A DNA stretch of 64,000 nt from an archaeon (GCA_043821585.1 JBDRCQ010000015.1:2909-66908), one strand, 5' to 3'. Shown: positions 962 to 63,829, counted from the first letter of the stretch. Translations and numbers: made by a program. Notes: generated by a model from the sequence alone, not told the origin.

Positions 962-990
962 ATCGGTAGTTGAACTTTCGTACGATAATC

Positions 991-998: not shown

Positions 999-1019
999 GG
1001 GTTGTTTTTTGGGTGAGGC

Positions 1020-1667: not shown

Positions 1668-1696
1668 AATAATTAGTTTTTTAGAACAAAGTTAAA

Positions 1697-2059: not shown

Positions 2060-2098
2060 TGATGAGTTATATCTTAAAACATGTTTTGGGTTAGGTTT

Positions 2099-2512: not shown

Positions 2513-2556
2513 GGAGTCTTACTTGCCAGTGTATTTAAAAAACTGACGTTTCTTGT

Positions 2557-3519
2557 TTGCTCATGGTTTTGAAAATTGGTAGCTTGAAACTGAAGAATCA
2601 ATTAGTTTTGGCGCCGATGGTGGATGTGACTGATTTGCCTTATCGGCTTTTGTGTCGAAAGTGTGGTGCAGGGTTGGCTTATACTGAGATGGTTTATATT
2701 GATGCGGCGTTGCATGAGAATGCTAAGACTTTGAAGATGATGAAAACTTGTGAGGAAGACTCGCCTTTGGGTCTGCAGATTACAGGTGATCGGTTGGAGG
2801 AATTTGAGGAGTTTGTTTCTCGTGAAGATCTCTGGAAGGATTATGATCTGATTGATTTGAATTGTGGTTGTCCTTCTTTGCGTGTTGCTAGAAAGAGCGG
2901 AGCTGGTTCGTTTTTAATGAATGACTCTGAGAAGATCGCCTCTTTTGTGAGGGTTTTGAAGAAGACGGGGAAACCTGTTACAGTTAAGGTTCGATTGGGT
3001 TTTGGCAAGATTAATGTTTTGGAAGTTGCTAGAGCTATTGAAGATGTTGGAGCTGATGCAATTACTGTTCATGCGAGGTTGGCGACTGAGGGAGGACGGG
3101 ATCGCGCCCAATGGGAATGGATCTCTAAGGTTAAGGAGACTGTGAAAATCCCTGTGATTGGTAATGGGGACATTGTTGATGGGGCCTCTGCGAATGAAGT
3201 TTTGGAGAGGTGTGATGGAGCTATGATCGCTAGGGCTGCAATTGGGGACCCTTTGATTTTTAGTCGCGTGCAGAACTATTTAGATGGAAAAGTTGAAGGG
3301 GAGATTGATTTGACCAAGAATTTGGAACTGTTTAAGGAGTATTTGAAACTGCAGAGGGAGCATTATGGGGATGGAGTTGATTTTGGGAAGATCAAGTATG
3401 TGGGTGGGCGGTTTTTGAAGAAAATGAAGGGGGCTGCTCGTTTACGTGAGGAGTTTCATGCCTTGAAGAGGTTGAAGGATATTGAGGTGTTTGTTGAGAG
3501 ACTAAATAATTTTATATAA
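2557..3519 (+). CDS. dus: tRNA-dihydrouridine synthase (Dus family)
   Basis: LAPMVDVTDLPYRLLCR...DLNCGCP...KPVTVKVRLG are Dus TIM-barrel signatures. Confidence 0.8.
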   Translation: MLMVLKIGSLKLKNQLVLAPMVDVTDLPYRLLCRKCGAGLAYTEMVYIDAALHENAKTLKMMKTCEEDSPLGLQITGDRLEEFEEFVSREDLWKDYDLIDLNCGCPSLRVARKSGAGSFLMNDSEKIASFVRVLKKTGKPVTVKVRLGFGKINVLEVARAIEDVGADAITVHARLATEGGRDRAQWEWISKVKETVKIPVIGNGDIVDGASANEVLERCDGAMIARAAIGDPLIFSRVQNYLDGKVEGEIDLTKNLELFKEYLKLQREHYGDGVDFGKIKYVGGRFLKKMKGAARLREEFHALKRLKDIEVFVERLNNFI

Positions 3520-3539
3520 CCTGGAATTTTTGAAATGTA

Positions 3540-4931
3540 ATGGAATTGAAACTGTTTAACACTCTGACGCGGAAGAAAGATGTTTTCAAGCCGATAAAGA
3601 AGGGCGAGGTTGGAATGTATTCTTGTGGACCGACTGTTTATTGGTATCAGCACATAGGTAACTTGAGAGCTTATTTGTTTGCGGATACTTTGAAGAGGGT
3701 TTTGGAATATAATGGGCTGAAAGTTAAACATGTCGTGAATGTTACGGATGTTGGGCACCTGACCTCTGATGCGGACGAGGGTGATGATAAAATGGAGGCG
3801 GCGGCCAGGAAGGAGGGTAAGAAGGCGGAGGAGATTGCGGAGTTTTATTTTAAGGTTTTTAGGGAAGACATGAAAAAGTTGAACATTAAAGAGCCGAGTG
3901 TTTGGTGTAAGGCGACTGACCACATAAAAGAGCAAATTGGATTAGTTGAGAAGCTGGAAGAGAGGGGATTTACATATGAGACGTCTGACGGGATTTATTT
4001 TGATTCTTCAAAGTTCAAAGATTATGGGAAGTTGGCTAAACTTAGGATTGAAGGGTTGGAAGAAGGAAAGAGGATTTCCGCTGGGGAGAAAAGGAATAAG
4101 ACCGACTTCGCTTTGTGGAAATTTTCTGAGAAGCCTGGTTTGAGGCAACAAGAGTGGGAGTCGCCTTGGGGTGTTGGTTTTCCAGGGTGGCACATTGAAT
4201 GTTCTGCTATGAGCATGAAATACCTTGGAGAGAGTTTTGATATCCATACAGGAGGGGAAGATCATGTGCCGATTCATCATACTAATGAAATTGCGCAGAG
4301 CGAGTGTGCTACCGGAAAGAAGTTTGTGAATTATTGGATGCATAATGCGTTTTTGGTGAACCGGGCTGGAGAGAAGGTTTCGAAGTCTAAGGGGGGGTTG
4401 TTCACTGTTTCGGAGCTTGAGGAGAAAGGGTACGATCCGCTTGATTTTAGGTATTTATTTCTGTTGACACATTATCGGAAGCCTCTGAAGTTTTCTTTAG
4501 AAGGTCTTGATGCGGCGAAGACAGGTCATGGCAGATTGAAGAAGAAAGTCCTTGAATTGAAGGTGGAAAAGCATAAAGGGCAGGATAACTCTGGAGAGTA
4601 TGAGGATAGGTTTGTGGGTGCAGTGAATGATGATTTGAATACGCCTGCTGCCTTAGGAATTGTTTGGGAAATGTTGGATGATTTCAATTTTGATGCTAAA
4701 AAGAAACTGAATCTTTTGGAAAAGTTTGATTCTGTTCTTGGGTTGAATGTTGGGGGCATGAAGGAAGAGAAAATTGATGTTCCGAAAGAGGTTCAAGATT
4801 TAGTCGATGAGCGGGAAAAGTTGAGGAAAGCGAAGATGTGGGCAGAGTCTGACTTGTTTAGGGAAAGGATTTTGGAAAAGGGCTTTAGGGTGGCGGATGG
4901 TCCGGATGGGCCTAAATTAGAGAAGGCTTAG
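3540..4931 (+). CDS. cysS: cysteinyl-tRNA synthetase
   Basis: [20 protein letters not shown] (HIGH region), Zn-binding CSAM, and KVSKSKGG (KMSKS). Confidence 0.9.
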
Positions 4932-4965
4932 AAACTTTTAATAATGGTCTTTTTGTGGGGTTTTT

Positions 4966-5274
4966 ATGTTATTTTTTAACATTGAAGACAGAAAGAAGTA
5001 TTTGTACTTTAAGAGAAAGAAGTTCACTTTGAGTCTGTCTTTTGTGCCTTTAGCGGTTTATTTTTTTCTTCTTCCTATTGCTACATTGTTCATAAAAACA
5101 GATATTTTTGTGTTGGCAGGGATTTTGTTGATGTTTCTTGTTTATGTATTTGGGATGTGGATGGCTATTGAAGGGATTATAATGAATCGCAAGATTGGTT
5201 ATTATCGAAGGAAAGGTAAAAAAATTGAGTTTGAGTTTGGAAAAGGAATATCTGGAGTTAAGGTTTACAAATAA
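4966..5274 (+). CDS. hypothetical membrane protein (2 TM)
   Basis: Two hydrophobic helices. No homology evidence. Confidence 0.35.
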   Translation: MLFFNIEDRKKYLYFKRKKFTLSLSFVPLAVYFFLLPIATLFIKTDIFVLAGILLMFLVYVFGMWMAIEGIIMNRKIGYYRRKGKKIEFEFGKGISGVKVYK

Positions 5275-8444: not shown

Positions 8445-10226
8445 ATGTCTAAAGGGAGAGTGATGAAGAATTTTGATGCGGGGGAGGAAGAACTGCTTAG
8501 GGGGTTCTTGTTTACTAATCCTGGTGGGGATGATGGCTTTGTTTATCCGCAGGAGTTGGTTGTAACGGAAGAGCTAGCGCCTTTGATGTCTGCTTATTCT
8601 AGGTCACATGTTCCTTTTCAGGAAAGGGTTTTGACCTATCTTGATAGGCATAAAGATGAGCAGACCAGAGCCATGTTGCCTTTGATTCCGCAATTAATGG
8701 ACATAACCAGGAATCCTGATGGGACTTTGAGGTTGACGGCTAAGACTGCAATATTCAATAGGCAATGGCCTCAGAGACATGGGCATGATTCGATTAAGGA
8801 AGAGGTTCCTCTTGTTGGACACTCGGAGAGGATATCTGACATAACTGGCAAGAGGATTACGGGACATCCGTTAAATCATCCGCAGGTTAAGTCTACGAGG
8901 TATTTGCATTTTGGGAGGGGGGATAATGTGGAGGACGAAGATTTGAGGGCGTTGGATCAAGGAGGCAGATTTTTAGAGTATCAGGATTGGATGAATCAGA
9001 GATATGTTGATATGACTGGGAGGCTTAGAGATGTTGTTTTCGATCATTCGGATACGGCAAGGGTTGTGGAGTTTTTGAGGAGGCCTGAGAACGTTGAGGC
9101 AGAAGTTGAAGCACAGATGGATGAAATGAAGGCTGTTAGGGATGGTTATGAACCGAGTGAAGGGGATCGAGACAGGGCGAGGGAGAGGGTTTTGAAGGGT
9201 TTGGAAGATGAAGGGGTTAGGAAGGCGGTGGGAAATTTTGTTTTGGATTCTTCAAGAATTTATTTGACGGCGGCTACTAAAACTTCCTTGGGTTTTGTTG
9301 CAGATGCTAGGACTTTGGAGAGCATTCTTACAGGGATGATTTCTTCTCAACGTTCAGAAGATGTTAGGAGGGGTCGGGCCTTGTGGGAACAAGCTCAGAA
9401 AGTGGCGCCTGTTTTGTTGGGTGAGAAAAGTCATGTTAGAGTTGATGCATGGAGGCAAAAGAATGAAACAGAACTTAGAGAGTTTCTGCAGGAAAGATTT
9501 GCGGGAGTTGAACCTCTTGAAGGGAAGCCGAGGGTTAGGGTTTGGGATCCTACAACTTTTAAGATGTATGATGATCGATTTAATGCGGCGATGGTTGCTT
9601 TTCCTTATTTGGATCTTAGTGTGGGCCAGATTGCTGATGAGATTTCTGCGGGAGATGCTGTGGAAATTTTAGAAAGGGCTCATAAAAATAGAGGACAATA
9701 CGATTTGGTTCATCCGGCGATCGCACATGGAGGGCTAATGTCTGAGTTTGTTATGGGCTATCATGGTTATAGGGATTTGTTTAGACATAGGAGGGGTTCG
9801 AGATCGGTGCAACTTTTGACCACGCGATTGGGTTTTGAGGTTCCTAAAATCTTTGAGACGTTTGGGATGGGTGATGAAGTTAGGGCTGATATGGAAAAGG
9901 CTGCGGAGATTTATGAACTTGCTAGGGAGCAGGATCCACATGTTGCGGAGAAGGTTGTGCCTTTTGGAGCTTTATGTAGATCGTTGCATTCTTGGCAGCC
10001 TGATCAGATGGCTTATGTGGCAAGGCTGAGGACGAATGCGGCCAGAGGGAATATTAGTTATGTTAACGTTGCTAGGGACATGATTGGACAAGTTGCTGAC
10101 TTGATGCCTGAAACTGCAAGATACTTTAGGGCTGATACGCAGGAGTACCCGGCGCATTTGTGGAAGAGGGGATATGAGTGGTATGATTCTGAAAGAAGAG
10201 GTAGAGATGAGAGTAAAGATAGTTAA
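8445..10226 (+). CDS. large hypothetical protein with a divergent ThyX (Thy1)-like C-terminal domain
   Basis: The C-terminal ~200 aa reads AHGGLMSEFVMGYHGYRDLFRHRRGSRSVQ ... VVPFGALCRSLHSWQPDQMAYVARLRTNAARGNISYVNVARDMIGQVADLMPE. This parallels the ThyX segment GHFSVLEH..RHRxxS..., ..VLP...R......N.R.W.HFI.MR...A..EIR.LA. The N-terminal ~390 aa is unrecognised. The locus is GC-richer than its flanks. Confidence 0.5.
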   Translation: MSKGRVMKNFDAGEEELLRGFLFTNPGGDDGFVYPQELVVTEELAPLMSAYSRSHVPFQERVLTYLDRHKDEQTRAMLPLIPQLMDITRNPDGTLRLTAKTAIFNRQWPQRHGHDSIKEEVPLVGHSERISDITGKRITGHPLNHPQVKSTRYLHFGRGDNVEDEDLRALDQGGRFLEYQDWMNQRYVDMTGRLRDVVFDHSDTARVVEFLRRPENVEAEVEAQMDEMKAVRDGYEPSEGDRDRARERVLKGLEDEGVRKAVGNFVLDSSRIYLTAATKTSLGFVADARTLESILTGMISSQRSEDVRRGRALWEQAQKVAPVLLGEKSHVRVDAWRQKNETELREFLQERFAGVEPLEGKPRVRVWDPTTFKMYDDRFNAAMVAFPYLDLSVGQIADEISAGDAVEILERAHKNRGQYDLVHPAIAHGGLMSEFVMGYHGYRDLFRHRRGSRSVQLLTTRLGFEVPKIFETFGMGDEVRADMEKAAEIYELAREQDPHVAEKVVPFGALCRSLHSWQPDQMAYVARLRTNAARGNISYVNVARDMIGQVADLMPETARYFRADTQEYPAHLWKRGYEWYDSERRGRDESKDS

Positions 10227-10875
10227 GAGGATTCCATTTGAGGATTTGAGGAAAATGATAGCAGAGGTTCCTTTGATGAAACCTGCTGCTGACGGTTCTC
10301 AGATTCATCCTTATAGGAATGCAAAGATTGGTTTGAGGCAGTTTAGTGCAGACCATGTCAACCCCCCTACTTTTTATCTGATTAGGCGAAATCTAGAAAT
10401 TCAGAGAGCTTTAAGGAGTCATCTGATGGCCGATCATGGAATTGATCCGTTGCGTTTGAGTGGCGCTTTGGAGATAAGGAACGAGAATGGGGAAATCTGG
10501 ACATTGACTCCTCCGATAGTTGAGTTTACTCCGAGGCACGTATTTTATGTTCCGCAACCTGGAGAATTGGATCATGGTCAAAGGAGGACGAGGATTTATG
10601 TTCCTTTGATTTGTGATGGGGCGCATAGAGTTGGCGTGGCGAGAGAAGCTGGAGGAGATTTTATTGGAGTTTCCATTGAGGGAGCGGACGACGCTTATCC
10701 TTATTACGCACACCCTAACGGGTGGGGCGACGTTAAAATTGTGGACGAGGTTCCGGGAACTATGGACGAAAAGAAAATGTATCTTCTAGCAGATTCTTAT
10801 GCGCTGTATCGGGACTTTAGCAGGATCGGGTGTGGTAAACCGAGACATGTTGGGGAGGGTGATAAGGGTGGCTAA
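10174..10875 (+). CDS. ParB/Srx-like nuclease-domain protein (start may be ATG 10207)
   Basis: LICDGAHRVGVAREAGGDFIGV resembles the ParB/sulfiredoxin signature (DGxHRxxAA..xG). Overlaps the upstream gene's end and the downstream gene's start. Confidence 0.45.
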   Translation: MSGMILKEEVEMRVKIVKRIPFEDLRKMIAEVPLMKPAADGSQIHPYRNAKIGLRQFSADHVNPPTFYLIRRNLEIQRALRSHLMADHGIDPLRLSGALEIRNENGEIWTLTPPIVEFTPRHVFYVPQPGELDHGQRRTRIYVPLICDGAHRVGVAREAGGDFIGVSIEGADDAYPYYAHPNGWGDVKIVDEVPGTMDEKKMYLLADSYALYRDFSRIGCGKPRHVGEGDKGG

Positions 10876-11482
10876 GCTTATTCATTTGGTTGGGTCTTCT
10901 GGGACTGGCAAGGGGAGTGTTCATAAGTATCTTGTTGGATATTTGAGGGGACAAGGGGGGAGTGTTGTAGAATTGGTTGAGCCGCCGGAACCTTTTCACC
11001 AGTTCATTAAAAATTATCGTTTGAGGCCAGATAAGGATGCGCTTGTTGAAGCGGCGATGTTTGCGACTGCGAGATTGTGGCTTTATGAAACTCAGGTTAT
11101 GCCAAGACTTGAGGATCCTAATTTGGTTTTTTTGTCAGATAGGGGTTTGTTGGATTCTTTTGTCTATCAGGGAGTTCTTGGAGGTGTTGGTGTTGAAACT
11201 GTTCAAAGATTGAATCAGCATGTGCCTTTGCCTGATTTGGCTATCGGACTGATTGTTGATGGGGTAGAAGGGAATAGGAGGGTTTTGGAGAGGAGGGGGG
11301 CGACTGGTGAGGCGTTAAGTGCTAACGAAACTGCTGCGGGGATTGCTAGAGTTTCTAATGCTTATGCGGGAATAGGGTTCACTTTTCCGGACATGAATTA
11401 TCGGACAATTGATACAACTTCGATGACTCTTGATGAAGTGAAGGATGTTGCTCGGAGTTACGTTGATGAGGTGTTGGCATGA
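10847..11482 (+). CDS. thymidylate-kinase-like dNMP kinase (second, divergent Tmk paralog; start 10847 ATG or 10868 GTG)
   Basis: P-loop LVGSSGTGKGSV and FLSDRGLLDSFVYQG (the DRY..S..YQG motif of the Tmk family). Confidence 0.7.
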   Translation: MLGRVIRVAKLIHLVGSSGTGKGSVHKYLVGYLRGQGGSVVELVEPPEPFHQFIKNYRLRPDKDALVEAAMFATARLWLYETQVMPRLEDPNLVFLSDRGLLDSFVYQGVLGGVGVETVQRLNQHVPLPDLAIGLIVDGVEGNRRVLERRGATGEALSANETAAGIARVSNAYAGIGFTFPDMNYRTIDTTSMTLDEVKDVARSYVDEVLA

Positions 11483-12123
11483 GTGGGGGGCTTGTTGATG
11501 CTGTCGGTTTTGATCTTGATGGTACGCTTTATACATTAAATGACGGGATTAATGATAGGATAAGGCAGCATGCCTGTCAAACTGCTGCAGGTATTTTGTC
11601 TAGACCTTATGAATGGGTTAGGGCTGAATTTGAAAGGCATTTTGCTGAGACTGGAAGTGGAAGAATTTCTTTGGAACAAATGGGAATTGATAATGGCAGG
11701 GAAATTGTGCAGGTTGCGTTGGAGGAGGCAGATATTGGCCCTTTATTGAATAGAGATGGCGCTTTGGCGGGGATGCTTGGTAGGCTTGGGGAGAGATTTA
11801 ATCTTTATTTGATTACTAGCAGTCCAAGGGGGAGCGCGGAATCGAAGCTTGCACATTTAGGGGTTAATTTGGATGTTTTTGATCCTCGTATTTATGGAGA
11901 AAGCCCTTTGTCTAGAAGGGATGGGTCTGCTTTTAGACATGTAGCTACAACCTATGGCATTGCTCTGCCGAGGATGATGTTTGTGGGTGATCGAGAGAAA
12001 GTTGATATCTTTCCTGCGCAGAGTCTGGGGTTAAAGACTGCGATGGTTAATGGGATGTCGGAACGTGCAGATTATAACCTGGGAAGTATTTATGAGTTAG
12101 AGGGTGTTTTACTCGGGACGTGA
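11479..12123 (+). CDS. HAD-superfamily hydrolase/phosphatase
   Basis: GFDLDGTLY (motif I), LITSSP, GDREKVDI (motif IV). ATGA start overlap with the upstream kinase. Confidence 0.75.
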   Translation: MSGGLVDAVGFDLDGTLYTLNDGINDRIRQHACQTAAGILSRPYEWVRAEFERHFAETGSGRISLEQMGIDNGREIVQVALEEADIGPLLNRDGALAGMLGRLGERFNLYLITSSPRGSAESKLAHLGVNLDVFDPRIYGESPLSRRDGSAFRHVATTYGIALPRMMFVGDREKVDIFPAQSLGLKTAMVNGMSERADYNLGSIYELEGVLLGT

Positions 12124-18866: not shown

Positions 18867-19301
18867 ATGGGGCAATTAATACACACAGCCTTTTTGTTCC
18901 CGGTTGTAGATGGTAGACTTTTTCTTGGTCGGAGGAACACCCCGCCCATGAAAGGTTATTGGGGACCGATTGGAGGGAAGAACGATTCACGGGAAAATGT
19001 CGCTTTAAGCCCATGGGATGCTCCCAAATTAATAGAAAAGATGGGGGGACATCAAGTTGTTTCTAGAGTTGATGAGTATCTAACTGAGTGTGGAAATGAG
19101 TGCATTCAGGGTACTGCGGTAAGGGAGTTTTGTGAAGAGGTATTTGCTGGTAGGAACTTTCCAGGCGATTTTGGGGAAGGAGATTTTTCTGATGTTTTGA
19201 GGGTTGGTTCTCTCGATGATTGTTTTGAGGCAGGTGGGCATGAAGTTGATACTGCTAATTATTTTTATATTGCGAGGTTGGGAGGAGAGACTTTAGTTTG
19301 A
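18867..19301 (+). CDS. hypothetical protein with a degenerate/interrupted Nudix-like motif
   Basis: GGKNDSRE ... AVREFCEEVFAG resembles a split Nudix box. Uncertain. Confidence 0.4.
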   Translation: MGQLIHTAFLFPVVDGRLFLGRRNTPPMKGYWGPIGGKNDSRENVALSPWDAPKLIEKMGGHQVVSRVDEYLTECGNECIQGTAVREFCEEVFAGRNFPGDFGEGDFSDVLRVGSLDDCFEAGGHEVDTANYFYIARLGGETLV

Positions 19302-25088: not shown

Positions 25089-25538
25089 ATGAATAATAAA
25101 AAGGGGTTGAGCAATCTTGTTGCTACAGTTTTGATCGTTTTGTTGGCTTTAGCTGCTGTTGCGATAATTTGGGGATTCTTGAGACCTACTTTTGATGATG
25201 CTGCTACTACGACCGGTTTGAGGTCTGCATGTTTCTTAGTTGAGTTGGAAGCTACTGGTTGCTCTGTTGCTTCAAATGTTGCTACGGTTACATATAAGAC
25301 AATTTCTACTGATGATAAGTTTAGTGGAGTTGTTGCGGTTGTTGAAGATTCGGCTTCAGTTACTAATACTACAAGAGGTAGTGCTCCTGGTCCGCTTCAG
25401 TCTGTGAATGTGGATGTTGCTGTGCCGAATCCTCCTTATACTGCTCCTTTCGAGGCTAGAGTTGCTGCTGTCGTTTCCGATGGTGCTGGAAATGAGGAAG
25501 TGTGTGCTGAGTCAGCGAGCGTGGTTTGTGGGCCGTAA
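25089..25538 (+). CDS. type IV pilin-like protein (class III signal peptide)
   Basis: MNNKKGLSNLVATVLIVLLALAAVAI is an archaeal prepilin-type signal peptide. Confidence 0.6.
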   Translation: MNNKKGLSNLVATVLIVLLALAAVAIIWGFLRPTFDDAATTTGLRSACFLVELEATGCSVASNVATVTYKTISTDDKFSGVVAVVEDSASVTNTTRGSAPGPLQSVNVDVAVPNPPYTAPFEARVAAVVSDGAGNEEVCAESASVVCGP

Positions 25539-25552
25539 AGAGGTAAAGAGAA

Positions 25553-26146
25553 ATGATAAATAAAAGAGGACTAAGTAATCTTGTTGCAACGGTTTTGATC
25601 GTTTTGTTAGCTTTGGCTGCTGTTGCGATTGTTTGGGGATTCTTGAGGCCTATGTTTACTGATACTGGTACTGAAGTTAATTTGAGGTCGCAGTGCTTTA
25701 GCGTTGACGTTCAGCCGGTTATTTGTACTTATTCCAATAACTTGACTAATGGAAGTTATTTGGATGTGACTGCTCGTGCTCGAAATATGGCTGGCGATGC
25801 TGCTCAGGTGTCTGGCGTTATAGATAGAGTTGATGGCGCTACACAGGCGGAGAATACTCAGTCTGCGGGGACCCTTTTGGGCACTGTTACTTTTGACTTT
25901 GGAGTGCATGGTTCTGTTGATGTATCTGCGGATGCTCCAACCACTGAAGAAGAATATGCTTTGTTTGATGATTTTACTGTTGCGGGGATTGTTTCGGACG
26001 ATGCTGGAAACAGTGAGGCTTGCTCTGGTGAGACGATAGCTTGCACCTATCTTCCTAAGTGTAGTCCAAACTTGTGTGGCCTCTGTGCTGACTCCATTGA
26101 CTGTGGTTTGGCATCTTGTGCTTGGTCTGCAGGTGTTTGCTCTTAA
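25553..26146 (+). CDS. type IV pilin-like protein (class III signal peptide), Cys-rich C-terminus
   Basis: MINKRGLSNLVATVLIVLLALAAVAI is nearly identical to the neighbouring pilin's N-terminus. The C-terminus has CSPNLCGLCADSIDCGLASCAWSAGVC. Confidence 0.6.
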   Translation: MINKRGLSNLVATVLIVLLALAAVAIVWGFLRPMFTDTGTEVNLRSQCFSVDVQPVICTYSNNLTNGSYLDVTARARNMAGDAAQVSGVIDRVDGATQAENTQSAGTLLGTVTFDFGVHGSVDVSADAPTTEEEYALFDDFTVAGIVSDDAGNSEACSGETIACTYLPKCSPNLCGLCADSIDCGLASCAWSAGVCS

Positions 26147-38491: not shown

Positions 38492-38587
38492 ATAAGGGAC
38501 TAAGCGGGGAAGTTTATTAATTTATTTACTTGCCTGGCTTGTTGTAATTTTATAATAGTTCTATTTAGAAAAATTTAAAAAAGGGGC

Positions 38588-39301
38588 TTGTTAGCTGGAA
38601 TTGTGGAAATAAACCATTACGAAGATGGCTCTCAGAATCCAAGTAGGCAGGATGAATTTTTGAGAGTTGTGGATATTCTTGAGCAAATTAGGGGGGCGGA
38701 TGGTGCTATTGTGGGAAAACTGGAAGGCCGGGTGAGTGAAGATTTAAAGGAAAGACTAAGGGACACTTATAAGCGGGCGGGCATGGACGTTAAGGATAGC
38801 CAGATTGATGCGGCTATTGAGCAACATAATTCGGGGAAGTGGGATTTTGAGCCGCCAGAGGGAGGAACAACTGTGGCAAGGTTGTATGTAAATCGGGGAA
38901 GGGTTTTCTGGAGGAGGATTGTCCCGGCTATTGCACTGGCAGGTGCTGCTTGGTTAGGTTGGACGGGTGTAAAGGCAGGCGTCAGAAATCATCATGAGGC
39001 TCAGGAAGCAACAGTAGAACAGGCGGTTGAGCAAGCCTATGAAGAGCGAGCGGAATTAGAACACTCTGTTGAGAGGATTCTATCTTCTCCGTTTGCTCTT
39101 GAGCTGCCTGAATCAGAATCAAGAAAATTGAACTTTGTTGTGGAGTCTGCCCAGGGACAGTTTGACGCAACAGACAATTTCTTTACAGAGTTTTGCCCAG
39201 AGGGCAAGGCGGATATTTTTGTTACAGCTGAGAATTATGCAGATGTGCGAGGCAGGCTTGAAAATACAGTGCAAATAATTTCTGGTGGGAAGGAGATTTA
39301 G
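38588..39301 (+). CDS. hypothetical protein with one central TM helix
   Basis: ORF. TM segment VPAIALAGAAWLGWTGV. First gene of a GC-richer four-gene block. Confidence 0.5.
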   Translation: MLAGIVEINHYEDGSQNPSRQDEFLRVVDILEQIRGADGAIVGKLEGRVSEDLKERLRDTYKRAGMDVKDSQIDAAIEQHNSGKWDFEPPEGGTTVARLYVNRGRVFWRRIVPAIALAGAAWLGWTGVKAGVRNHHEAQEATVEQAVEQAYEERAELEHSVERILSSPFALELPESESRKLNFVVESAQGQFDATDNFFTEFCPEGKADIFVTAENYADVRGRLENTVQIISGGKEI

Positions 39302-39318
39302 AGGGGGCAAGGAAACTT

Positions 39319-40155
39319 TTGAAAGATCATGAACAATATGGTGTTGTTGGCACTAGTCTAGACAACTTAATATCCCAGATCAGGCGCATGGAAGCTCCAG
39401 ATATTTTGAGAATGCGAGCGGAGATAGTTTATCAGGATGGAAGGGACAGTATTGAAAATAGGCAGCTTGATTCTGCACAAGCATCTAATAATCGATTGAT
39501 GGGGGCTGTTCAGGATTGCTCCGATTTTACAGACATTTCAGGAAGGGTTGACAAGGTATATGGTGTTGTTAAACAGATTGCTGCAGGAAAAGTAGAAAAA
39601 GGAAAAGTTGATGCATTGTACAGAGAGGTCATTGCTGCAGTTTCAACAGGGGAAGTTGAAAGACTGCGAGGTTCATTCTCTAGATTGGAAAATTATGGTG
39701 CCTTGCTGGGTCAAGAATTTAAGATGGTATTTCGTCAGGCACGCCATGAGGGCCAGATGAAAAATGGGGTTGATCGGTACTTTACTGGAGAGAGCGGCAA
39801 GAGGGAGAGCGGAGTTTATATGTTTTCAAGCGCATTTGGACAGAGTGATCAACCATTACGTGTAGACATATACAATGAGGAGACTCAAAGGACCGATGTT
39901 GTTGAAGTGTGGGGCGAAAAAGTTGGAACCAGCACGCGAGATCCCCTGCTGCAAAGGCTGCTTAATGATAAGAAAGACAATGGCCATATTGATAATAGCA
40001 GTCTTAGCGAGGATGAAATGGCTCGTGGGGTCCGTAATGTTGGAGATAACAGGGCCTTTGGGGAAAAGAAAAGGGGATATGAGAGTTTTATTATGTACTT
40101 GACTGATGATCGTGGGCAACCATTTGAAAGGACTGGACAAATTACACAATGGTGA
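39319..40155 (+). CDS. hypothetical protein (278 aa)
   Basis: ORF, same block. Confidence 0.5.
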   Translation: MKDHEQYGVVGTSLDNLISQIRRMEAPDILRMRAEIVYQDGRDSIENRQLDSAQASNNRLMGAVQDCSDFTDISGRVDKVYGVVKQIAAGKVEKGKVDALYREVIAAVSTGEVERLRGSFSRLENYGALLGQEFKMVFRQARHEGQMKNGVDRYFTGESGKRESGVYMFSSAFGQSDQPLRVDIYNEETQRTDVVEVWGEKVGTSTRDPLLQRLLNDKKDNGHIDNSSLSEDEMARGVRNVGDNRAFGEKKRGYESFIMYLTDDRGQPFERTGQITQW

Positions 40156-41546
40156 GTGGAAGCAGTGCCTTGAGCACATTAAGGGGAAAGATAGATGAAG
40201 TGGAAAGAGATCATGGTTTTGCTAGAAGATCTGTAGAAGAGGCTGAGCAGAAGTTGGAACAACTGAGGCGGCAACGAAATGATTCCTATGTAGAGCTCGC
40301 GCAGATTTACTTGCCCGAACTTGATGCACAAGCTGTCCAAAGCACATTGGAGGGGTTGCGTGATACTGCTCAGAGGGCTTTTGAAGCTAAACAGGACAGA
40401 ATGGGGGAGCTTGATAGGTTGATGCAAGAGAGTGCTGTTCGAAGAGATGAACTTGAGGGGAGACTTAATGAAATCGGTGGAAAGATTAAATCTCTTGCGA
40501 AAACTCGGGATGAAACTCAGGCAATAGTTGCCCAGGATCTTGGGGATAACCAGAGGTATCAACAATTAATTAAAACTGCAGATGGTGCAAAGGAACGCTT
40601 TGCGAGAAATAGGGCTCGAGCAGAGGTTTTTGAAAAAGATATTCGGGGAAAGATTAGAGAATATGAGGGCAATGAACTTTTCATGTATCTTGTTGGTAGA
40701 AGATTTGGCACGGAGGAGGCTAAGGGTAATTGGTTTACGCGTGCACTTGATTTGTTGGTAGCTCAACAGGTTAAATTTGGGAAGAATAAAGAGAACTATG
40801 ATTTCCTAGTAGCTATACCCGATAGGATCCAGGTAGAAATTAAGCGGCAAGAACAGGCTTTGGGAAATGCCACTGCTGAAATGGCCAGAATTGAGGAGGA
40901 TGCATCAGTTAGACATGGACTACCCCCAATTCTTGAGCAAGGTGCTTTGGCTTTAGAAACTCGAAATAATTTTCTTGAGGAGATTGATGCTAGCGAGAAC
41001 GCACGTGAAAAATATGAGGGAGCGAGAAGAGCGCTCGATACAACGCGTGGTGAATTTTACCAGGGCGTTGTTGGAGAGATTGCTTCTTATTTAGAGGGCC
41101 AGAGTATTGAAGAACTTCGGAAACGTGCTTTGGAAACGCCTGATCCGAGGGATGATCATATTGTGGAAAGGATTGATGGCCTCATTAGAACTATCTCTGC
41201 AGAAGAAGGAGACTTACCTGCTAAGAGAGAACAAGAACAAGAACTTTCAAGAAAACTGTGTGACTTGCGGGGAATCAAACAGAGGTTTGTAAATAAAGAT
41301 TATGAATCAGGTAGGTCGTATTTTGACGATGGCCTTGACTTTGATAGTTTACTATTAGGTTTTATGGCTGGAAGATTTTCTGCAACTAGCATTAATGGTT
41401 CGATTGATAATAGTCAGCATTTTAGGCCTAGGCCTTCTTATTCAAGTTCATCTAGTTCTTCTTCTTCTAGTATTTCTAGTAGTAGTTTCTCTAGTGGTAG
41501 CAGCGGTTTTGGAGGAGGTAGTTTCTCTAGTGGCAGCGGATTTTAG
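40149..41546 (+). CDS. hypothetical coiled-coil protein with poly-Ser/Gly C-terminal tail
   Basis: Extensive heptad-like charged helices. Tail SYSSSSSSSSSSISSSSFSSGSSGFGGGSFSSGSGF. 7-nt overlap with the upstream gene. Confidence 0.5.
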   Translation: MVSGSSALSTLRGKIDEVERDHGFARRSVEEAEQKLEQLRRQRNDSYVELAQIYLPELDAQAVQSTLEGLRDTAQRAFEAKQDRMGELDRLMQESAVRRDELEGRLNEIGGKIKSLAKTRDETQAIVAQDLGDNQRYQQLIKTADGAKERFARNRARAEVFEKDIRGKIREYEGNELFMYLVGRRFGTEEAKGNWFTRALDLLVAQQVKFGKNKENYDFLVAIPDRIQVEIKRQEQALGNATAEMARIEEDASVRHGLPPILEQGALALETRNNFLEEIDASENAREKYEGARRALDTTRGEFYQGVVGEIASYLEGQSIEELRKRALETPDPRDDHIVERIDGLIRTISAEEGDLPAKREQEQELSRKLCDLRGIKQRFVNKDYESGRSYFDDGLDFDSLLLGFMAGRFSATSINGSIDNSQHFRPRPSYSSSSSSSSSSISSSSFSSGSSGFGGGSFSSGSGF

Positions 41547-41610
41547 AATTTTCATTGGGCGAAGTGGTGAAAGGAAGCATGGTCTTGGGAATAGTAATTG
41601 TTTATAACTC

Positions 41611-42195
41611 TTGCATGTATTGAATTTCATGGCGAGAAGCAAGCCTCCAATGTTTACTGCATCTTTTCTTGCAGAGGAACTTGCAAGATACTGGGTTCAT
41701 GGTCAGCAGGCACCGTTAAAGGGATTCACTATTGCTCAGCTTCGTCCTGGTGAAGGGGTCGCGCCTTCTATAGACTTAGATCGGTCAAATGGGAGGGTTT
41801 TTGTTCATAGGGGGGAGGGTGATCAGATAATCTATTTTACGGATGTGGGCATCTCACAATACGTTTATGTTCATAATTTAGGGTTAAGGGTTAGGGACAC
41901 TAGGCGATTGGAAGATGCGTTGGTTCAGAGAATTGATGGGCTGTCTGGAGACCGGAGAGATAAATATCTTGCACAGTTTGATAAACCTATTGTGATTTCT
42001 GATACGGTGGAGTTTAAAGGATCTAATCACAATGGCTTGTCTGTAATGGCCCAGGTCTTTTCAGTGCCAAGGGGGCCACATCATAAGATTTCTAGCCGTC
42101 TTTTTGAGTATGGTTATAATGTTCTTGCCTTGCCTGCTTTTTGTGTCTTAAGTGGGAGGCCGCTTCCTGAGGCTGATGAGTGGAATGTGTTCTGA
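41611..42195 (+). CDS. hypothetical protein (194 aa)
   Basis: ORF, same block. Confidence 0.5.
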   Translation: MHVLNFMARSKPPMFTASFLAEELARYWVHGQQAPLKGFTIAQLRPGEGVAPSIDLDRSNGRVFVHRGEGDQIIYFTDVGISQYVYVHNLGLRVRDTRRLEDALVQRIDGLSGDRRDKYLAQFDKPIVISDTVEFKGSNHNGLSVMAQVFSVPRGPHHKISSRLFEYGYNVLALPAFCVLSGRPLPEADEWNVF

Positions 42196-46334: not shown

Positions 46335-47096
46335 TTGTTTATGGTACTGATAGACATTCACCTTGAAGGGATCAAGAAAGAACGTTTCTTTGATAATGAT
46401 CCGACGAAGTTACTTAGAGAGATATTGACTAGAAATGTGCCTGTTGTGCTTTCTTTACCGCCGTGGATGGAAAATTATTGGATGGAGTCTGAGAAGGGAC
46501 CTGAGACTATTGAGCTGGCGCGAGAGGTTGTTAAAAGGCCTGGAAGTTTCCTTGGACAGCAAGGGAATATGCATCGGTGTAGTTATCCGCATGGGTTAGT
46601 TGATCCCTGGCATGAGAATTACTGTCTTTGGGGCCCTAGAAAGAGTGCTAAGGAACAGAGGAATTTTATGACTGAGGGGAGGGATAGATTGAGTGAGTTT
46701 ATGGATGTCGAGCCGAAAGTGTATTGTCCGCCTAATCATTTGTGGGATAATACTACATTGCATGTGGCAGATGAAATGGGCTATACTCATGTAACTGATA
46801 AGGCGATGATTCCGTTGGCACCGTATCGATTCGGGGGTTTGATTGTTGTTCCTGAAGGGGATATGCGGAAAGGAGATTTTATGAATGCTGCAGCTTATAT
46901 TCATTATGATGAATTGGATAGCCATAGGGAATTTTATAGGCAGGCGATGCAGGGTTCTATATCGCTTGCAGACATTACTCCGGAAAGAGTTTCTCAAAAG
47001 TTGATTGACAGGAATCGGAGAATGAAACATATGCATAAGATTGCAAGAGATCTTGTTAGGATGCCCCAGACTGCTTGGAGAACCTTAAGGAGTTAG
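46335..47096 (+). CDS. hypothetical protein (253 aa)
   Basis: ORF. Several conserved-looking His/Cys/Trp positions but no assignable family. Confidence 0.5.
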   Translation: MFMVLIDIHLEGIKKERFFDNDPTKLLREILTRNVPVVLSLPPWMENYWMESEKGPETIELAREVVKRPGSFLGQQGNMHRCSYPHGLVDPWHENYCLWGPRKSAKEQRNFMTEGRDRLSEFMDVEPKVYCPPNHLWDNTTLHVADEMGYTHVTDKAMIPLAPYRFGGLIVVPEGDMRKGDFMNAAAYIHYDELDSHREFYRQAMQGSISLADITPERVSQKLIDRNRRMKHMHKIARDLVRMPQTAWRTLRS

Positions 47097-51853: not shown

Positions 51854-52351
51854 ATGGACAGTCAGAGAAAACTAGATCAAGGGCATTGCTCTGTTGAACC
51901 TAATGAGGGGGCTGTGGCGAGCAATAGCTCGGGGGATGTTGCTGGGGGATTTATTGGTTCTAGTTTGACTTATCTTGTTCTTTCTGGAGGGGTATCGCCG
52001 TTTGTTGCTTCTGCTGGCAGTCTGATAGCTGGAGGGTTGTTGGGGGGGTTGATTGGGAACAGAGGAAGAAGAGTTTATGGGGCAGTACGTACAGGCACTG
52101 TGGCACTTGCAGCAAATGTTTTACTCTCATTGGGGTCCCATATAGGTTATCATGAGGCTCAAGTGAATACTGTGCTTTTAACTGATGCACTAGATCGCGG
52201 GAAAAGGGCGGTAGTTGCTATTCAGAATGATGGAGATGAACATTATCTTCTAGAGACGAGACCCTCTGGTGGTTTTTTTTCTGCGTTTGGTGGCGAACAC
52301 GATGAAGAATTAAGAAGACTGGTTTATCATCAAGAAGATCGTGAACCCTAA
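51854..52351 (+). CDS. hypothetical Gly-rich (glycine-zipper) membrane protein
   Basis: GGLLGGLIGN and similar GxxxG runs. Confidence 0.4.
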   Translation: MDSQRKLDQGHCSVEPNEGAVASNSSGDVAGGFIGSSLTYLVLSGGVSPFVASAGSLIAGGLLGGLIGNRGRRVYGAVRTGTVALAANVLLSLGSHIGYHEAQVNTVLLTDALDRGKRAVVAIQNDGDEHYLLETRPSGGFFSAFGGEHDEELRRLVYHQEDREP

Positions 52352-53839: not shown

Positions 53840-55330
53840 ATGGGATGTAGATGGCTGTTTCTTTTGGGAGGCGTTTTTCTTATTTGTGTCGTCTTTGGTG
53901 GTTTTGTGAGTGCTTATACTCTGACTGATAATGTCGGCGTTGATGAAATTGTCTGCCAAAGTTATGAAGATTCTATGGATATCCGAAGTGTTGATTTTGA
54001 ATACGTTGGAGACCATATGGATGTAGTGATAACTGTTAAGGGCGATGGATCTGGAGAAATTCCGTTGCCAGGGTCTTCTCATTTTGCTTACACTGTTCGA
54101 TTTTCGCAAACTGAACAAGCCAGAATAAATCTGCGGACTTCTGGGAGTGTCGATTGTTTTAATGACTGCCAATCTCCGTCAGTGAGTGGAAATACCTTAA
54201 GGTTTAATTGGAACCAAGCCCCACCGAGTTCCTCAAGAACTGTGAGTGGTAGTGTTGTTTATTGGGGGGGAGATGGAGTTTGTAGAACAGGGGACACGGT
54301 TAGTGGGACTTTGCCTGCTGAAGGTTCTTCTCCTCCGGAGTGCGGAGATGGGAACGTTGACGATGGAGAGGGATGTGATGGAAGTAATCTAAATGGAGAG
54401 ACTTGCCAAACTCAGGGTTTTGACTCTGGGAGTTTAAGTTGTGATTCTAGTTGTAATATTATTACGAGTGGTTGTAGCAACGAAGGAGGGGGTTCGAGCG
54501 AGGAGATGAATGCAGTGAGTTTGTATTTGACTCCGGCGTCTAGTGCTCCAGCAGTTATTGGACAGCCTTATGGAGTTGATGTGATTGTTAAATCTGAGGG
54601 GCAAGATCCTTTTGTGATGGTTAATTTAATACTCCTCTGGGATCCTACAAAGGCTACCCTGAATACAGAGATTGATCTTAGCAATGCAGACTATACAGAC
54701 TGGATGATATCTGAGTTTATTCCAGGTTTTCCTATTAATGATAACTTAGTGGATGGTGATGCAGAGTTTAATTTATTGGCTGGTTATCCTGGTGCTCCAG
54801 TTGCAACTTCCGAAGGAATTAATGTTGGAAGATTTTGGTTGACTCCTTTGACTAGCGATTTTAACTTTAATGTTAAGAAAAGTTATACTGCTCGTGAGGG
54901 TGGTGCGGATTATTACACTACTGCAGTTTATGATGATGAGTACGGCGGGTGGGATATTTTGCCTTACTATGATATTCACGGCGGTGTTGGTGAATTATTT
55001 ATGCCTGATTTGACTCAGCCTTATTGTGGAAATGGGATTGTTGATGAAGGGGAAGAGTGTGATGGTTATGATGGGATAGGGTATTGCGTGGATCTTGGAT
55101 ACTCTGGGGGAATTTATGGCTGCACTACTGATTGTATTGTTGATGTTACTGGATGTGATGGGGCAGAACCTAGCGGATTATGTGGAAATGGCGTTGTTGA
55201 TGAGGGTGAGGCCTGTGATGGAACAGACTTGAGGGGAATGACTTGTGAATTTGTAGGTGGCGGAGATGCGGAAGGAGTTTTGGGCTGTTTAGCAGATTGT
55301 TCTAATTTTGACGTTAGTGGGTGTTATTAA
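53840..55330 (+). CDS. secreted/membrane-anchored protein with three Cys-rich CGNGxVDxGEECDG repeats
   Basis: N-terminal hydrophobic signal/anchor. Repeats ECGDGNVDDGEGCDG, YCGNGIVDEGEECDG, LCGNGVVDEGEACDG resemble the Myxococcus-type cysteine-rich repeat. Confidence 0.65.
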   Translation: MGCRWLFLLGGVFLICVVFGGFVSAYTLTDNVGVDEIVCQSYEDSMDIRSVDFEYVGDHMDVVITVKGDGSGEIPLPGSSHFAYTVRFSQTEQARINLRTSGSVDCFNDCQSPSVSGNTLRFNWNQAPPSSSRTVSGSVVYWGGDGVCRTGDTVSGTLPAEGSSPPECGDGNVDDGEGCDGSNLNGETCQTQGFDSGSLSCDSSCNIITSGCSNEGGGSSEEMNAVSLYLTPASSAPAVIGQPYGVDVIVKSEGQDPFVMVNLILLWDPTKATLNTEIDLSNADYTDWMISEFIPGFPINDNLVDGDAEFNLLAGYPGAPVATSEGINVGRFWLTPLTSDFNFNVKKSYTAREGGADYYTTAVYDDEYGGWDILPYYDIHGGVGELFMPDLTQPYCGNGIVDEGEECDGYDGIGYCVDLGYSGGIYGCTTDCIVDVTGCDGAEPSGLCGNGVVDEGEACDGTDLRGMTCEFVGGGDAEGVLGCLADCSNFDVSGCY

Positions 55331-61943: not shown

Positions 61944-63401
61944 ATGGCTAGAGATAGAAAACTTGAGGCAGTGGATTCCGCAGCCAGCAAGCTAATTGCA
62001 AAGGCAAGGGAAGTTGCGACTCCGTTAGATGGCCGTTTTGCAAGGCAGGTAGAAGATCTTGAAGGACAAATTGGCGGGGTTTATGCAGCCTATGCAGATA
62101 AATTGGCTCATCAGCAAGAACGTGGTGCAGCAGATATAGCCCATGGTATTGCGGCTAGCAGATGGTCTTATTTTTCAGATTATTTCCCGGAAGAACCTGG
62201 AGAGGTTAAGGCTTCTTTTGGCGGCGGAAATGACGGAGTCAGGATTACATTGAAGTATAGTGGTGTGCCAAACGGAAGTATTTGGTCACGCATTAGTAGA
62301 AATGGTGGGAAAAAAGTGACGCTTAATGCTGAAATGCAGTATTATGGTGAGACTAGAATGCTTGCTCCTTTAGAAATTGATATTCCAAGTGATGGTAAGA
62401 GGAGAGAAGGAGATGATTTTGAGATGAAGGTTGCTACTTATCTTCATGATGTTGCTATTAATGCTGTAACAGAGCTTGTTTCTAGGACGAAGGCAGAACC
62501 TAAGCAATTGCTTGATCGGGTGGGAGATTTTGCCTGGTTTGAGGCAGATCTTGTTTTGGGAGCTTCTAACATGCTTCGCACTACTGCTGTGGCCAGGGAG
62601 TTTCTTGTTTTACAAGGCAAGGATGCTTTGGGTGAGGCTATTAGGGCGGGGAATGCTACTTATGAGGAGGGTGCTGCAGCTGCAAGGGCTGAACTCGAGA
62701 AGGGAGTTTCAGAACTTAAGAGATGTGCTGCAACGTTGGAAAAAGATTTAAGTGTTAAGCTTGCTGCAGTTGATGGAGATCTTAACGCGCACCAGGCTGC
62801 AGTCGTGGCAGGTTTAGATGCGGCTAAGGCTGAAATTTTAGAGAGATTGGGAACTTATGAAACTGAAAGACGGCAGGGGTTGGATGTGGAGCTTTTGACT
62901 GCTGTCAGGGCAGAGCAAAGCAGGCTTGAAAAGGAGGTTGGTAGGCAGAAGAGCGAGCTGCAAACCTTGAATGCTGCGATTGCGGCTAGGCGGGGTGAGC
63001 CGAATGCAGTTGGAGTTTATCTTCTTGGGGAGATGGATAGGTTCTTTCCGGATTATAACCCTGAAAGGACAGAGTATGATGTAACTCCTGAGAAGAGAGC
63101 TGAACAAGTAGGAGTTCTTTCTAAGGCTCTTGGGGATAATAGCGCTTTGCTTAATGAGAAAGATGCTGTTCAAGTTTTGGCAGTGTTGACTAGGAACGTT
63201 CAGGGCTCTGGGCATGCTGGAATGCATAATGCTATTGATATGAGGTCTTTAGTTGATGAAGTAAAATGGGTAGCTTCAAGGCTAGGTCATGAGCATGTAG
63301 GAGATGTCGTTGATAGGATTAATTCTACCGGAAAGAATGGTCGAAGAAAGATCGCTTTCGGTGAAATGCAAAAGGTTGTTAGGGCAGTGGTTGGCAAGTA
63401 A
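61944..63401 (+). CDS. hypothetical protein (485 aa; Ala/Glu/Arg-rich, partly coiled coil), ORFan
   Basis: ORF. GC-richer than neighbours. Confidence 0.5.
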   Translation: MARDRKLEAVDSAASKLIAKAREVATPLDGRFARQVEDLEGQIGGVYAAYADKLAHQQERGAADIAHGIAASRWSYFSDYFPEEPGEVKASFGGGNDGVRITLKYSGVPNGSIWSRISRNGGKKVTLNAEMQYYGETRMLAPLEIDIPSDGKRREGDDFEMKVATYLHDVAINAVTELVSRTKAEPKQLLDRVGDFAWFEADLVLGASNMLRTTAVAREFLVLQGKDALGEAIRAGNATYEEGAAAARAELEKGVSELKRCAATLEKDLSVKLAAVDGDLNAHQAAVVAGLDAAKAEILERLGTYETERRQGLDVELLTAVRAEQSRLEKEVGRQKSELQTLNAAIAARRGEPNAVGVYLLGEMDRFFPDYNPERTEYDVTPEKRAEQVGVLSKALGDNSALLNEKDAVQVLAVLTRNVQGSGHAGMHNAIDMRSLVDEVKWVASRLGHEHVGDVVDRINSTGKNGRRKIAFGEMQKVVRAVVGK

Positions 63402-63403
63402 TT

Positions 63404-63829
63404 TTAATCTAAGCACCTTAGCTTTTCAGCGAACAGTTCTTCTAACTCTCCTTGGCCCATACTATTTCTTTCTGGAACCTCTAAGCAAACAATTTCTCCG
63501 GCGTAGCCTGTTGCGTGACGTATTTGTGCCTCCATTCTATGTTCCATTGTAAAAATCTGGTCTGCCCCGAGGATCGTTGTATGTATGGTTCCTACTCGAT
63601 CTACATATCTCTGAAAATTTATATCTAGTTCCATTTGATAGGGGCGGCCGTGCGTTCCGGCCATGTGGGCTGCTTCCATTTTTTCAATATCTAGGAGGCT
63701 CACGAGGCCGTGAATCCCAAGGTGGCCGATTTTTGGGTGTTTCCCTTGAAGGGCATACTTATGTTTTAGAGCATGGGCTGCGGCAGTGCTTCTATGAGTA
63801 CCATGTGTATCAACAAATAAGTAGAACAT
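63404..63829 (-). CDS. hypothetical His-rich protein (possible metal-dependent hydrolase)
   Basis: FVDTHGTHR..HALKHK..GHLGIHG suggests metal ligands. Unassigned. Confidence 0.4.
   Translation of the reverse strand: MFYLFVDTHGTHRSTAAAHALKHKYALQGKHPKIGHLGIHGLVSLLDIEKMEAAHMAGTHGRPYQMELDINFQRYVDRVGTIHTTILGADQIFTMEHRMEAQIRHATGYAGEIVCLEVPERNSMGQGELEELFAEKLRCLD

Follow-up and report, generated by a model that had tools for sequence, protein, structure and literature searches.

Gene pairs in which a membrane protein of the DUF6384 family (Pfam PF19911) is encoded next to a coiled-coil protein are known from Serratia plymuthica, Limnobaculum, the megaplasmid NZ_CP017294 and the jumbo Yersinia phage phiR1-37 (g191/g192), and no mention of DUF6384, PF19911 or phiR1-37 g190-g192 was found in the main texts of the literature searched. 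We describe a locus with the same two families, side by side, at positions 38588-42195 of a stretch of 64,000 nucleotides (GCA_043821585.1, JBDRCQ010000015.1:2909-66908), hereafter the window, from a metagenome-assembled genome (MAG) most closely related to DPANN lineages (Woese-, Pace- and Nanoarchaeota). The window locus shares with the known pairs the gene order, except for that in Serratia, as well as the site of the transmembrane helix, a C-terminal I-T-x-W motif and a Ser/Gly tail with an aromatic end in the coiled-coil partner. It differs from them in that the DUF6384 gene is frameshifted into two open reading frames (ORFs), and in that a third gene, p390, was not found within the 64 kb.

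We judge it likely that 38588-42195 consists of an inserted copy, about 3 kb long, of a two-gene cassette whose first gene is frameshifted, followed by an unrelated native gene. What had looked like an orphan operon thereby turns out to comprise a single broken gene, the partner of that gene and a neighbour native to the genome. The instance itself is ordinary, being a further, broken member of a catalogued family pair in a small insertion beside a lineage-specific gene, and it illustrates at base level how a housekeeping spacer in a reduced DPANN genome can take up a cassette.

The split DUF6384 gene

The ORF listing of the locus returned four ORFs in one orientation, at 38588-39301 (237 aa), 39319-40155 (278 aa), 40149-41546 (465 aa) and 41611-42195 (194 aa), here named ORF1 to ORF4, which reproduces the arrangement given in an earlier note on this sequence. 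ORF1 lies in frame 2 and ORF2 in frame 1, with a gap of 17 nt between them instead of the 18 nt of the note, and the 7-nt overlap that it reported is the ATGGTGA at 40149-40155, where ORF2 ends and ORF3 begins. The fourth gene is listed with 194 aa, as the note had it, but its actual start is ATG 41629, which gives 188 aa. The note had taken these ORFs for a four-gene operon of ORFans without a recognisable domain, a description that has to be abandoned: ORF1 and ORF2 read as one frameshifted gene, ORF4 is native and has its own conserved TATA-like promoter, both ORF1 and ORF2 lie above the Pfam cut-off for DUF6384, and homologues number 34 for ORF3 and 55 for DUF6384, the latter gathered by a profile search.

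The N-terminal fragment of the DUF6384 protein is encoded by ORF1 (38588-39301, plus strand, frame 2; MFH1802764.1) and the C-terminal fragment by ORF2 (39319-40155, plus strand, frame 1; MFH1802765.1). Against PF19911, for which the gathering threshold is 25 bits, ORF1 scored 49.6 bits over profile positions 7-142 and ORF2 46.6 bits over positions 139-287, and NCBI names both products 'DUF6384 family protein', placing the start of ORF1 at GTG 38603. ORF1 contains a cytoplasmic helical region, the transmembrane helix and the first half of a helical bundle; ORF2 contains the second half of this bundle and a beta-rich C-terminal domain that ends in ITQW (GQITQW). When an intact homologue of 488 aa was used as tblastn query, its residues 11-246 matched frame 2 up to 39319 and its residues 230-488 matched frame 1 from 39289, so that homology in the frame of ORF2 begins already upstream of its start at 39319. 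In the multiple alignment (A3), the two ORFs abut inside one helical region.

An AlphaFold 2 (AF2) model of the rejoined protein of 522 aa had a mean predicted local distance difference test (pLDDT) score of 84, rising to 97-98 over residues 130-375, with a continuous helix (217-267) that spans the junction and a beta-rich domain at 378-522. In all of the 20 other loci examined, DUF6384 is one ORF; the window copy, being split across frames, does not present one continuous polypeptide over the whole profile. Because the two ORFs match complementary halves of the profile, the tblastn match switches frame at 39289-39319, the gene is unsplit elsewhere and the modelled helix runs through the junction, ORF1 and ORF2 are a single DUF6384 gene interrupted by a one-base frameshift.

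Three-frame translation and the alignment of homologues delimit the place of the lesion. A single-base change can rejoin the frames only within 39262-39298 (plus strand), the likeliest site being GGTGGGAAGGAG at 39284-39295, and adding one base anywhere in this stretch gives a full-length ORF that is homologous throughout. The longest homopolymer in the stretch has 3 nt. Programmed -1 frameshifting was ruled out, since no slippery heptamer of the form X XXY YYZ occurs within 39262-39298.

On balance we favour a real mutation as the origin of the frameshift. Homopolymers in the stretch do not exceed 3 nt. Of the eight flanking genes, seven differ by no more than 6 aa in length from their orthologues in a collinear Nanoarchaeota relative (L024), and the eighth has 191 aa against 170, which suggests a clean assembly. 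The window copy is moreover divergent: it scores 96 bits in total to PF19911, as compared with 157-204 for intact long-form homologues, a near-invariant Glu (YLIVEA) is substituted in it (YMFSSA), and p390 was not found within 64 kb by tblastn. A general assembly frameshift problem was also considered and rejected, as the overlapping ORFs at 8445-12123 are distinct genes and the flanking genes are about as long as their orthologues.

Several observations weigh against a real mutation and are what an error of assembly or consensus would leave, in which case the living organism would have a single DUF6384 protein of about 522 aa and an intact, functional two-gene cassette. Indels are possible in MAG consensus sequences, one added base restores the full-length ORF, the gene looks sound apart from the frameshift, with the residues invariant in DUF6384 retained, and ORF3 keeps every invariant position of its own family. 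No second lesion within 1.5 kb and no further stops were seen, which fits either an artefact or a very recent event. Assembly error could thus be the source of the frameshift, and we regard it as a tentative but serious alternative. If the mutation is real, the C-terminal half would be made without a transmembrane helix and could not reach its normal compartment, and the window copy is then probably inactive or decaying.

Functional fission of the gene, in which translation of ORF2 would restart at TTG 39319, preceded by a Shine-Dalgarno-like motif, and the two products would reassemble, is improbable in our view. A purine-rich GAGGGGG does stand 10-16 nt upstream of this TTG, each half is otherwise intact, and a Budviciaceae entry of 244 aa suggests that fragments exist elsewhere. 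The break, however, falls within a helix of the bundle that AF2 predicts confidently as continuous, the C-terminal piece has neither a transmembrane helix nor a signal sequence, though the family topology predicts an outside location for it, and there is no split copy among the other loci.

The transmembrane helix itself supports the membership of the window copy in the family. The single central helix that the earlier note had seen in the first protein was confirmed at aa 111-128 (nt 38918-38971). Its hydrophobicity is weak (Kyte-Doolittle 1.31, family median 1.87), and there are five Lys/Arg residues in its upstream flank and one downstream. DUF6384 proteins carry this helix at about residue 105, to which the window copy conforms, and all of them, the window copy included, end in the C-terminal I-T-x-W motif. 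Lys plus Arg are more numerous upstream of the helix than downstream in 24 sequences of the family, against three, and this concentration of positive charge on the upstream side predicts a bitopic protein with N-in/C-out topology. The family falls into two size classes, with long forms of about 460-520 aa in DPANN archaea, Budviciaceae, Serratia and the phages. In Longimicrobiales, Desulfobacterales and Bradyrhizobium its members are short, at about 300-315 aa, and are without most of the helical bundle that separates the transmembrane helix from the beta domain (alignments A3 and A4).

The probable insertion site and the native ORF4

The locus is flanked by archaeal housekeeping genes (PheRS alpha, PheRS beta, an amino-acid-kinase-fold UMP kinase and Ogg). 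A Nanoarchaeota relative (L024/L025) is collinear with this region, having in order PheRS-beta, PheRS-alpha, RNase P p30, UMP kinase, an ORF4 homologue, Ogg and two more genes, and the identity to the relative is 65-75% for seven flanking proteins and 46% for ORF4. In the relative, the ORF4 homologue directly follows the kinase gene after a single spacer of 110 nt, and this spacer aligns on both sides of the segment in the window. The left remnant of the ancestral UMP-kinase/ORF4 spacer (GTTTATTAATTTATTTACT, 38512-38530) matches spacer positions 19-37, and on the right the alignment covers 41568-41625. The right remnant (41568-41628, plus strand) aligns to spacer positions 49-107 and contains a conserved block, AATTGTTTATAACTCT, that is identical in L024 and whose TATA-like box (41601-41607) stands 25 nt upstream of the ATG of ORF4.

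From these spacer and synteny alignments it follows that an indel of about 3.04 kb (38531-41567, plus strand, boundaries approximate), absent from the syntenic site of L024/L025, carries only DUF6384 and its partner, and that ORF4 is not part of it. A second TATA-like box, TTTTATAATA at 38548-38557 (plus strand), was read from the sequence within the insert, where it precedes the possible starts by about 30-45 nt, and is a putative promoter of the cassette. ORF4 (41629-42195, plus strand) occupies the same slot between UMP kinase and Ogg in the relative without the cassette and, judging by this context, is a native, lineage-specific gene of 188 aa that probably forms a separate transcription unit. 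Some 20 homologues of it were found among 1.8 billion representative proteins, the closest named one being in a Nanoarchaeota MAG, and none occurs in any cassette locus.

Gain of the segment in the window is favoured over its precise loss in the relative, because no two DPANN genomes have the cassette in the same surroundings. Three points weigh against an insertion: a deletion in the relative could explain the indel equally well, no direct or inverted repeats flank 38531-41567, and no integrase or transposase ORF is present between 38.5 and 42.2 kb. Transposon-like borders were likewise rejected, as no terminal repeats were found. The horizontal acquisition proposed in the earlier note is in this way upheld for ORF1-3 by the break in synteny with a close relative, but neither for ORF4 nor on the grounds of composition that had been offered for it.

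The cassette elsewhere and its possible role

ORF3 (40149-41546, plus strand) encodes the coiled-coil partner, a soluble, all-helical protein of 465 aa whose family adjoins DUF6384 at every locus. Among its 34 homologues, 29 matched at E values of 2e-82 to 7e-63 with 30-35% identity and came from metagenomes and DPANN MAGs, and the others include Limnobaculum proteins; over the whole set, E values ranged from 2e-82 to 5e-15 and query cover from 81 to 99%, with 52% for the weakest match. Additional copies of the partner were recovered from Longimicrobiales, Desulfobacterales and one MAG labelled as Methanosarcinales, at nine loci, by means of a pattern taken from the low-complexity tail of a 16-sequence alignment. 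The family invariants F178, Y180, L323, T330, D335 and G408 are all present in ORF3 (alignment A1). The window cassette as a whole (ORF1-3) is divergent, with 30-36% identity to every homologue, and Arg-rich.

As the earlier note had observed, ORF3 ends in SYSSSSSSSSSSISSSSFSSGSSGFGGGSFSSGSGF. Its disordered Ser/Gly tail extends over aa 430-465 (nt 41436-41543) and terminates in GGGSFSSGSGF, and its Ser codons are mixed, which suggests a tail preserved for its protein sequence and not a repeat produced by slippage. All partner tails, whether from archaeal, bacterial, plasmid or phage copies, are Ser/Gly tails with a terminal aromatic or Leu residue. The AF2 model of ORF3 (mean pLDDT 83) consists of eleven helices of 8-77 residues with short breaks between them, and suggests folded-back bundles with small conserved non-coiled regions rather than one continuous rod.

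The adjacency of the two genes is the most constant feature of the system. DUF6384 and the coiled-coil gene lie next to each other in 20 of the 20 other loci examined, which span DPANN archaea, Longimicrobiales, Desulfobacterales, Serratia, Limnobaculum, two plasmids and two jumbo phages. The coiled-coil gene usually begins 2-20 nt downstream of DUF6384, and the 7-nt ATGGTGA overlap recurs in two DPANN loci (L015 and L017). ORF3 is a conserved, translationally coupled partner of DUF6384, and the two genes are a self-contained mobile cassette.

An all-against-all comparison of neighbouring genes in 19 sources (18 loci and the window region) yielded only three recurrent families, namely the coiled-coil protein, DUF6384 and p390. 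The p390 proteins have 383-399 aa, with 40-51% identity among the archaeal, bacterial and phage copies compared, and match nothing in Pfam, NCBIfam or the PDB. In nine loci, about half, p390 adjoins the pair (L001, L003, L011, L012, L013, L017, L019, L020 and L021), whereas in the 64-kb window tblastn with two p390 proteins gave nothing below an E value of 1, so that the window does not hold the full triad. In Serratia plymuthica (L013, 4328-8392) the order is p390, coiled-coil gene, DUF6384; in all other triad loci p390 either precedes DUF6384 and the coiled-coil gene, in that order, or is divergently transcribed. This permuted order indicates that the unit is conserved as a set of genes and not as a fixed transcript layout. 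RefSeq labels p390 'merozoite surface protein 3b' or 'cell surface protein', and JGI labels the partner 'chromosome segregation ATPase', names that look like low-complexity or coiled-coil mis-annotations.

Mobile elements account for several of the triads. One is carried by a conjugative IncP megaplasmid of P. aeruginosa (NZ_CP017294.1, L019, 7007-10919; its DUF6384 and coiled-coil proteins are WP_193480722.1 and WP_132705736.1), one by a Bradyrhizobium plasmid (L020, 7001-10548) and one by the jumbo Yersinia phage phiR1-37, where it corresponds to g190-g192 (L021, 4953-8784), while the jumbo Dolichospermum phage Dfl-JY45 has the pair without p390 (L022, 4035-6766). A search of BFVD gave one real match, phiR1-37 g191, and IMG/VR, scanned with patterns of p390 and of the coiled-coil protein, yielded no relatives. 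The RNA-seq data for phiR1-37 (Table S2 of PMC4848604) give g190-g192 mean read values of 14,000-42,000 in the early, middle and late phases alike, and the table does not mark their products as belonging to the virion; most phiR1-37 genes in the part of the table compared have 10-5,000 mean reads, which places g190-g192 among the most highly transcribed at all stages.

We put at about even the chance that the pair, with or without p390, constitutes an undescribed, self-contained, membrane-associated system, unrelated detectably to characterised machinery, that is exchanged among DPANN archaea, at least four bacterial phyla, megaplasmids and jumbo phages, that is represented in phiR1-37 by highly expressed non-virion genes, and of which the window holds a recently inserted, possibly decaying copy. 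The conserved module of two or three genes is thereby defined where databases hold only a DUF label or misleading names. It crosses the boundaries between archaea, bacteria, phages and plasmids, persists in very small genomes and is highly expressed in a jumbo phage, and these features recommend it for functional study in systems that are easily handled, for example Serratia, P. aeruginosa megaplasmids and phiR1-37.

The combination of a membrane anchor and a long helical protein, to which the earlier note had drawn attention, does correspond to a functional unit formed by DUF6384 and its partner. From the architecture of the proteins we infer that the cassette would encode a stoichiometric, structural, non-enzymatic assembly anchored in the membrane. 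The N-terminal region of DUF6384, of about 100 aa, would be cytoplasmic, and the helical bundle, as a stalk, would project outside the cell together with the beta domain. The cytoplasmic N-terminus may recruit the coiled-coil partner, as well as p390 where it is present, and the flexible Ser/Gly tail of the partner with its terminal aromatic residue could serve as a tether or docking peptide. Two considerations count against such an assembly: it is drawn from architecture, no structural homologue tying the cassette to a function, and under the N-in/C-out topology most of the conserved mass of DUF6384 would be separated from its partners by the membrane, an arrangement that does not sit easily with a tight complex.

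Searches for known domains and folds are consistent with a non-enzymatic role. Pfam, NCBIfam, PADLOC and PHROGs contained no enzymatic or known domain for any component beyond DUF6384, with nothing above noise, and sequence-profile searches of the PDB with the three families and ORF4 returned nothing or coiled-coil noise. Foldseek comparison of the ORF3 model with the PDB gave generic helical matches with TM-scores of at most 0.24 (Rad50, MukB, chemoreceptors and Tc toxins), and that of the DUF6384 model gave nothing below an E value of 0.017. The partner and p390 have no hydrophobic segment, their maximum hydropathy being 1.1-1.2. Paralogy among DUF6384, the partner and p390 was rejected, as hhalign between the families gave probabilities of only 0.4-3.9%, all below 4%.

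The earlier note had suggested a membrane-remodelling or stress module of the PspA/Vipp1/ESCRT-III or TelA type, an idea to which we attach little probability. PspA/IM30/Vipp1 with PspB/PspC is similar in that a helical soluble protein stands beside a partner with a small transmembrane segment, and membrane association is plausible in both cases; the helical region of DUF6384 also gave sub-threshold profile matches to Vipp1/PspA chains (E 0.2-1). These matches, however, do not rise above the noise, standing beside those to other coiled coils such as keratin, GCN4 and fusion glycoproteins, and no component matched PF04012, PF03357 or PF05816 at E values of 1 or less. Alignment to E. coli PspA by hhalign gave at most 1.2% (1.2% for alignment A1, 0.3% for A4 and 0.8% for A5), and among the top 50 Foldseek matches in the PDB, which were generic coiled coils, neither model had a PspA, Vipp1 or ESCRT-III chain. 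The cassette thus differs from PspA/IM30/Vipp1 in sequence, profile and fold; its proteins are twice as long, and it has an extra beta domain, the Ser/Gly tail and other operon content.

TelA/KlaB proteins, with XpaC-type membrane partners, are helical proteins of about 380-400 aa that occur with a membrane protein on large plasmids and in some phages. We take p390, helical and of about 390 aa, to have the size of a TelA protein, and the spread of the cassette on megaplasmids and phages presumably resembles that of Ter/TelA modules. Against this likeness, neither ORF1-4 nor the DUF6384 and partner homologues matched TelA/KlaB (PF05816) at E values of 1 or less, six p390 proteins were without a match at 10 or less, and p390 was not found in the window.

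Among other long helical proteins, SMC, Rad50 and MukB have long antiparallel helices like those of ORF3 and supplied the best Foldseek matches in the PDB (Rad50 at E 7e-4, and the MukB elbow). The TM-scores of at most 0.24 nevertheless set them apart, and ORF3 has neither an ATPase head nor a hinge domain, its model being helical throughout. With NCBIfam SMC_prok_A it scored 16.7 bits against a cut-off of 729.4, on the coiled coil only, and the name 'chromosome segregation ATPase' is a coiled-coil artefact. A Gly/Ser/Phe-rich low-complexity tail after a helical rod resembles the tails of keratins, and there were weak profile matches to keratin; ORF3 differs from intermediate-filament-like proteins (crescentin, FilP and keratin) in its broken helices and its obligate pairing with a transmembrane protein, and no evidence of filament formation was found.

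Roles in defence or exclusion, in stress protection or as a toxin-like system are no more than conceivable. An anti-phage, superinfection-exclusion or entry-exclusion system would explain the presence of the cassette in phages and megaplasmids and its patchy occurrence on chromosomes. Its sporadic spread across domains and on mobile elements, with a different location in each DPANN genome, the membrane anchor of one component and the high expression from the early stage onwards that Table S2 records for phiR1-37 all agree with this proposal. We still consider it unlikely: the PADLOC models did not match, the neighbours are housekeeping genes and not defence islands, no nuclease, NTPase or other effector domain was detected, and the neighbour comparison revealed no recurrent neighbour beyond the three families.

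A tripartite pore-forming or membrane-attacking complex of the ClyA family type, used on host membranes by DPANN episymbionts or by phages, is very improbable. Its appeal lies in the three co-operonic helical proteins of 380-490 aa, found in Serratia and on plasmids, and in weak matches to SmhA (E 0.39) and XaxB (Foldseek E 0.049, TM-score 0.13-0.17). DPANN cells, moreover, depend on contact with a host. The matches to SmhA and XaxB are, however, not significant, and the three families are not paralogous, whereas the components of known tripartite toxins (SmhABC, AhlABC and XaxAB) are; the soluble components lack a hydrophobic head segment, and the cassette also occurs in free-living Longimicrobiales and Desulfobacterales.

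Composition of the window

The four genes of the locus had been described as visibly richer in G/C, Ala, Arg and Glu than their surroundings, and a modest shift of this kind was found, with GC contents of 0.43-0.47 against a mean of 0.415 ± 0.038 for the genes of the window (+0.4 to +1.4 standard deviations). Only the first codon positions carry the excess (GC1, 0.55-0.60), where Arg replaces Lys, with R/(R+K) of 0.65-0.73, together with Ala, Gly and Glu. GC at third positions (GC3) is 0.32-0.41 in the four genes, against 0.389 ± 0.056, and the leave-one-out synonymous-codon z scores of ORF1 to ORF4 (-0.26, -0.07, -0.55 and -0.74) are typical of the window. The earlier note had named GC and codon statistics indistinguishable from the average, with homologues absent or dispersed, as what would count against it. 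GC3 and codon usage are indeed the same as in the window, so that the argument from composition fails by its own measure, while the homologues turned out to be abundant and syntenic.

An Arg-rich signature, with R/(R+K) of at least 0.55, is seen in about 17 of the 61 genes of the window, the native ORF4 among them, and being so common it does not mark a related set. The ORFs at 1020-1667 and 61944-63401, which the note had linked to the locus by this signature, show no homology to the module and have no counterpart in any module locus.

Usage of Arg and Lys in the window seems to be bimodal, the housekeeping genes having R/(R+K) of 0.10-0.40 and the 17 or so others at least 0.55, with normal synonymous codons in both. 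Examples of the Arg-rich kind lie at 2099-2512, 8445-12123, 18867-19301, 25553-26146, 46335-47096, 51854-52351, 53840-55330 and 61944-63829. At 8445-12123 (plus strand), four overlapping, co-oriented Arg-rich genes encode a 593-aa protein with a weak match to ThyX (PF02511), a ParB-CE protein (PF24392), a thymidylate kinase and a HAD hydrolase, and look like a thymidine/nucleotide-modification cassette, as in phage DNA hypermodification. ORFs of unusual composition without a Pfam match include two adjacent Ala-rich ones at 25089-26146, one of 165 aa with 15% Gly at 51854-52351 and one of 496 aa with 14% Gly and 1% Lys at 53840-55330. GC skew on the plus strand is positive in nearly every 1-kb bin, reaching a cumulative value of 14.9 and remaining at about 0-0.18 even over minus-strand genes, which suggests that the window (1-64000) lies on one replichore, with a strong replication-strand skew over purine-rich coding strands.

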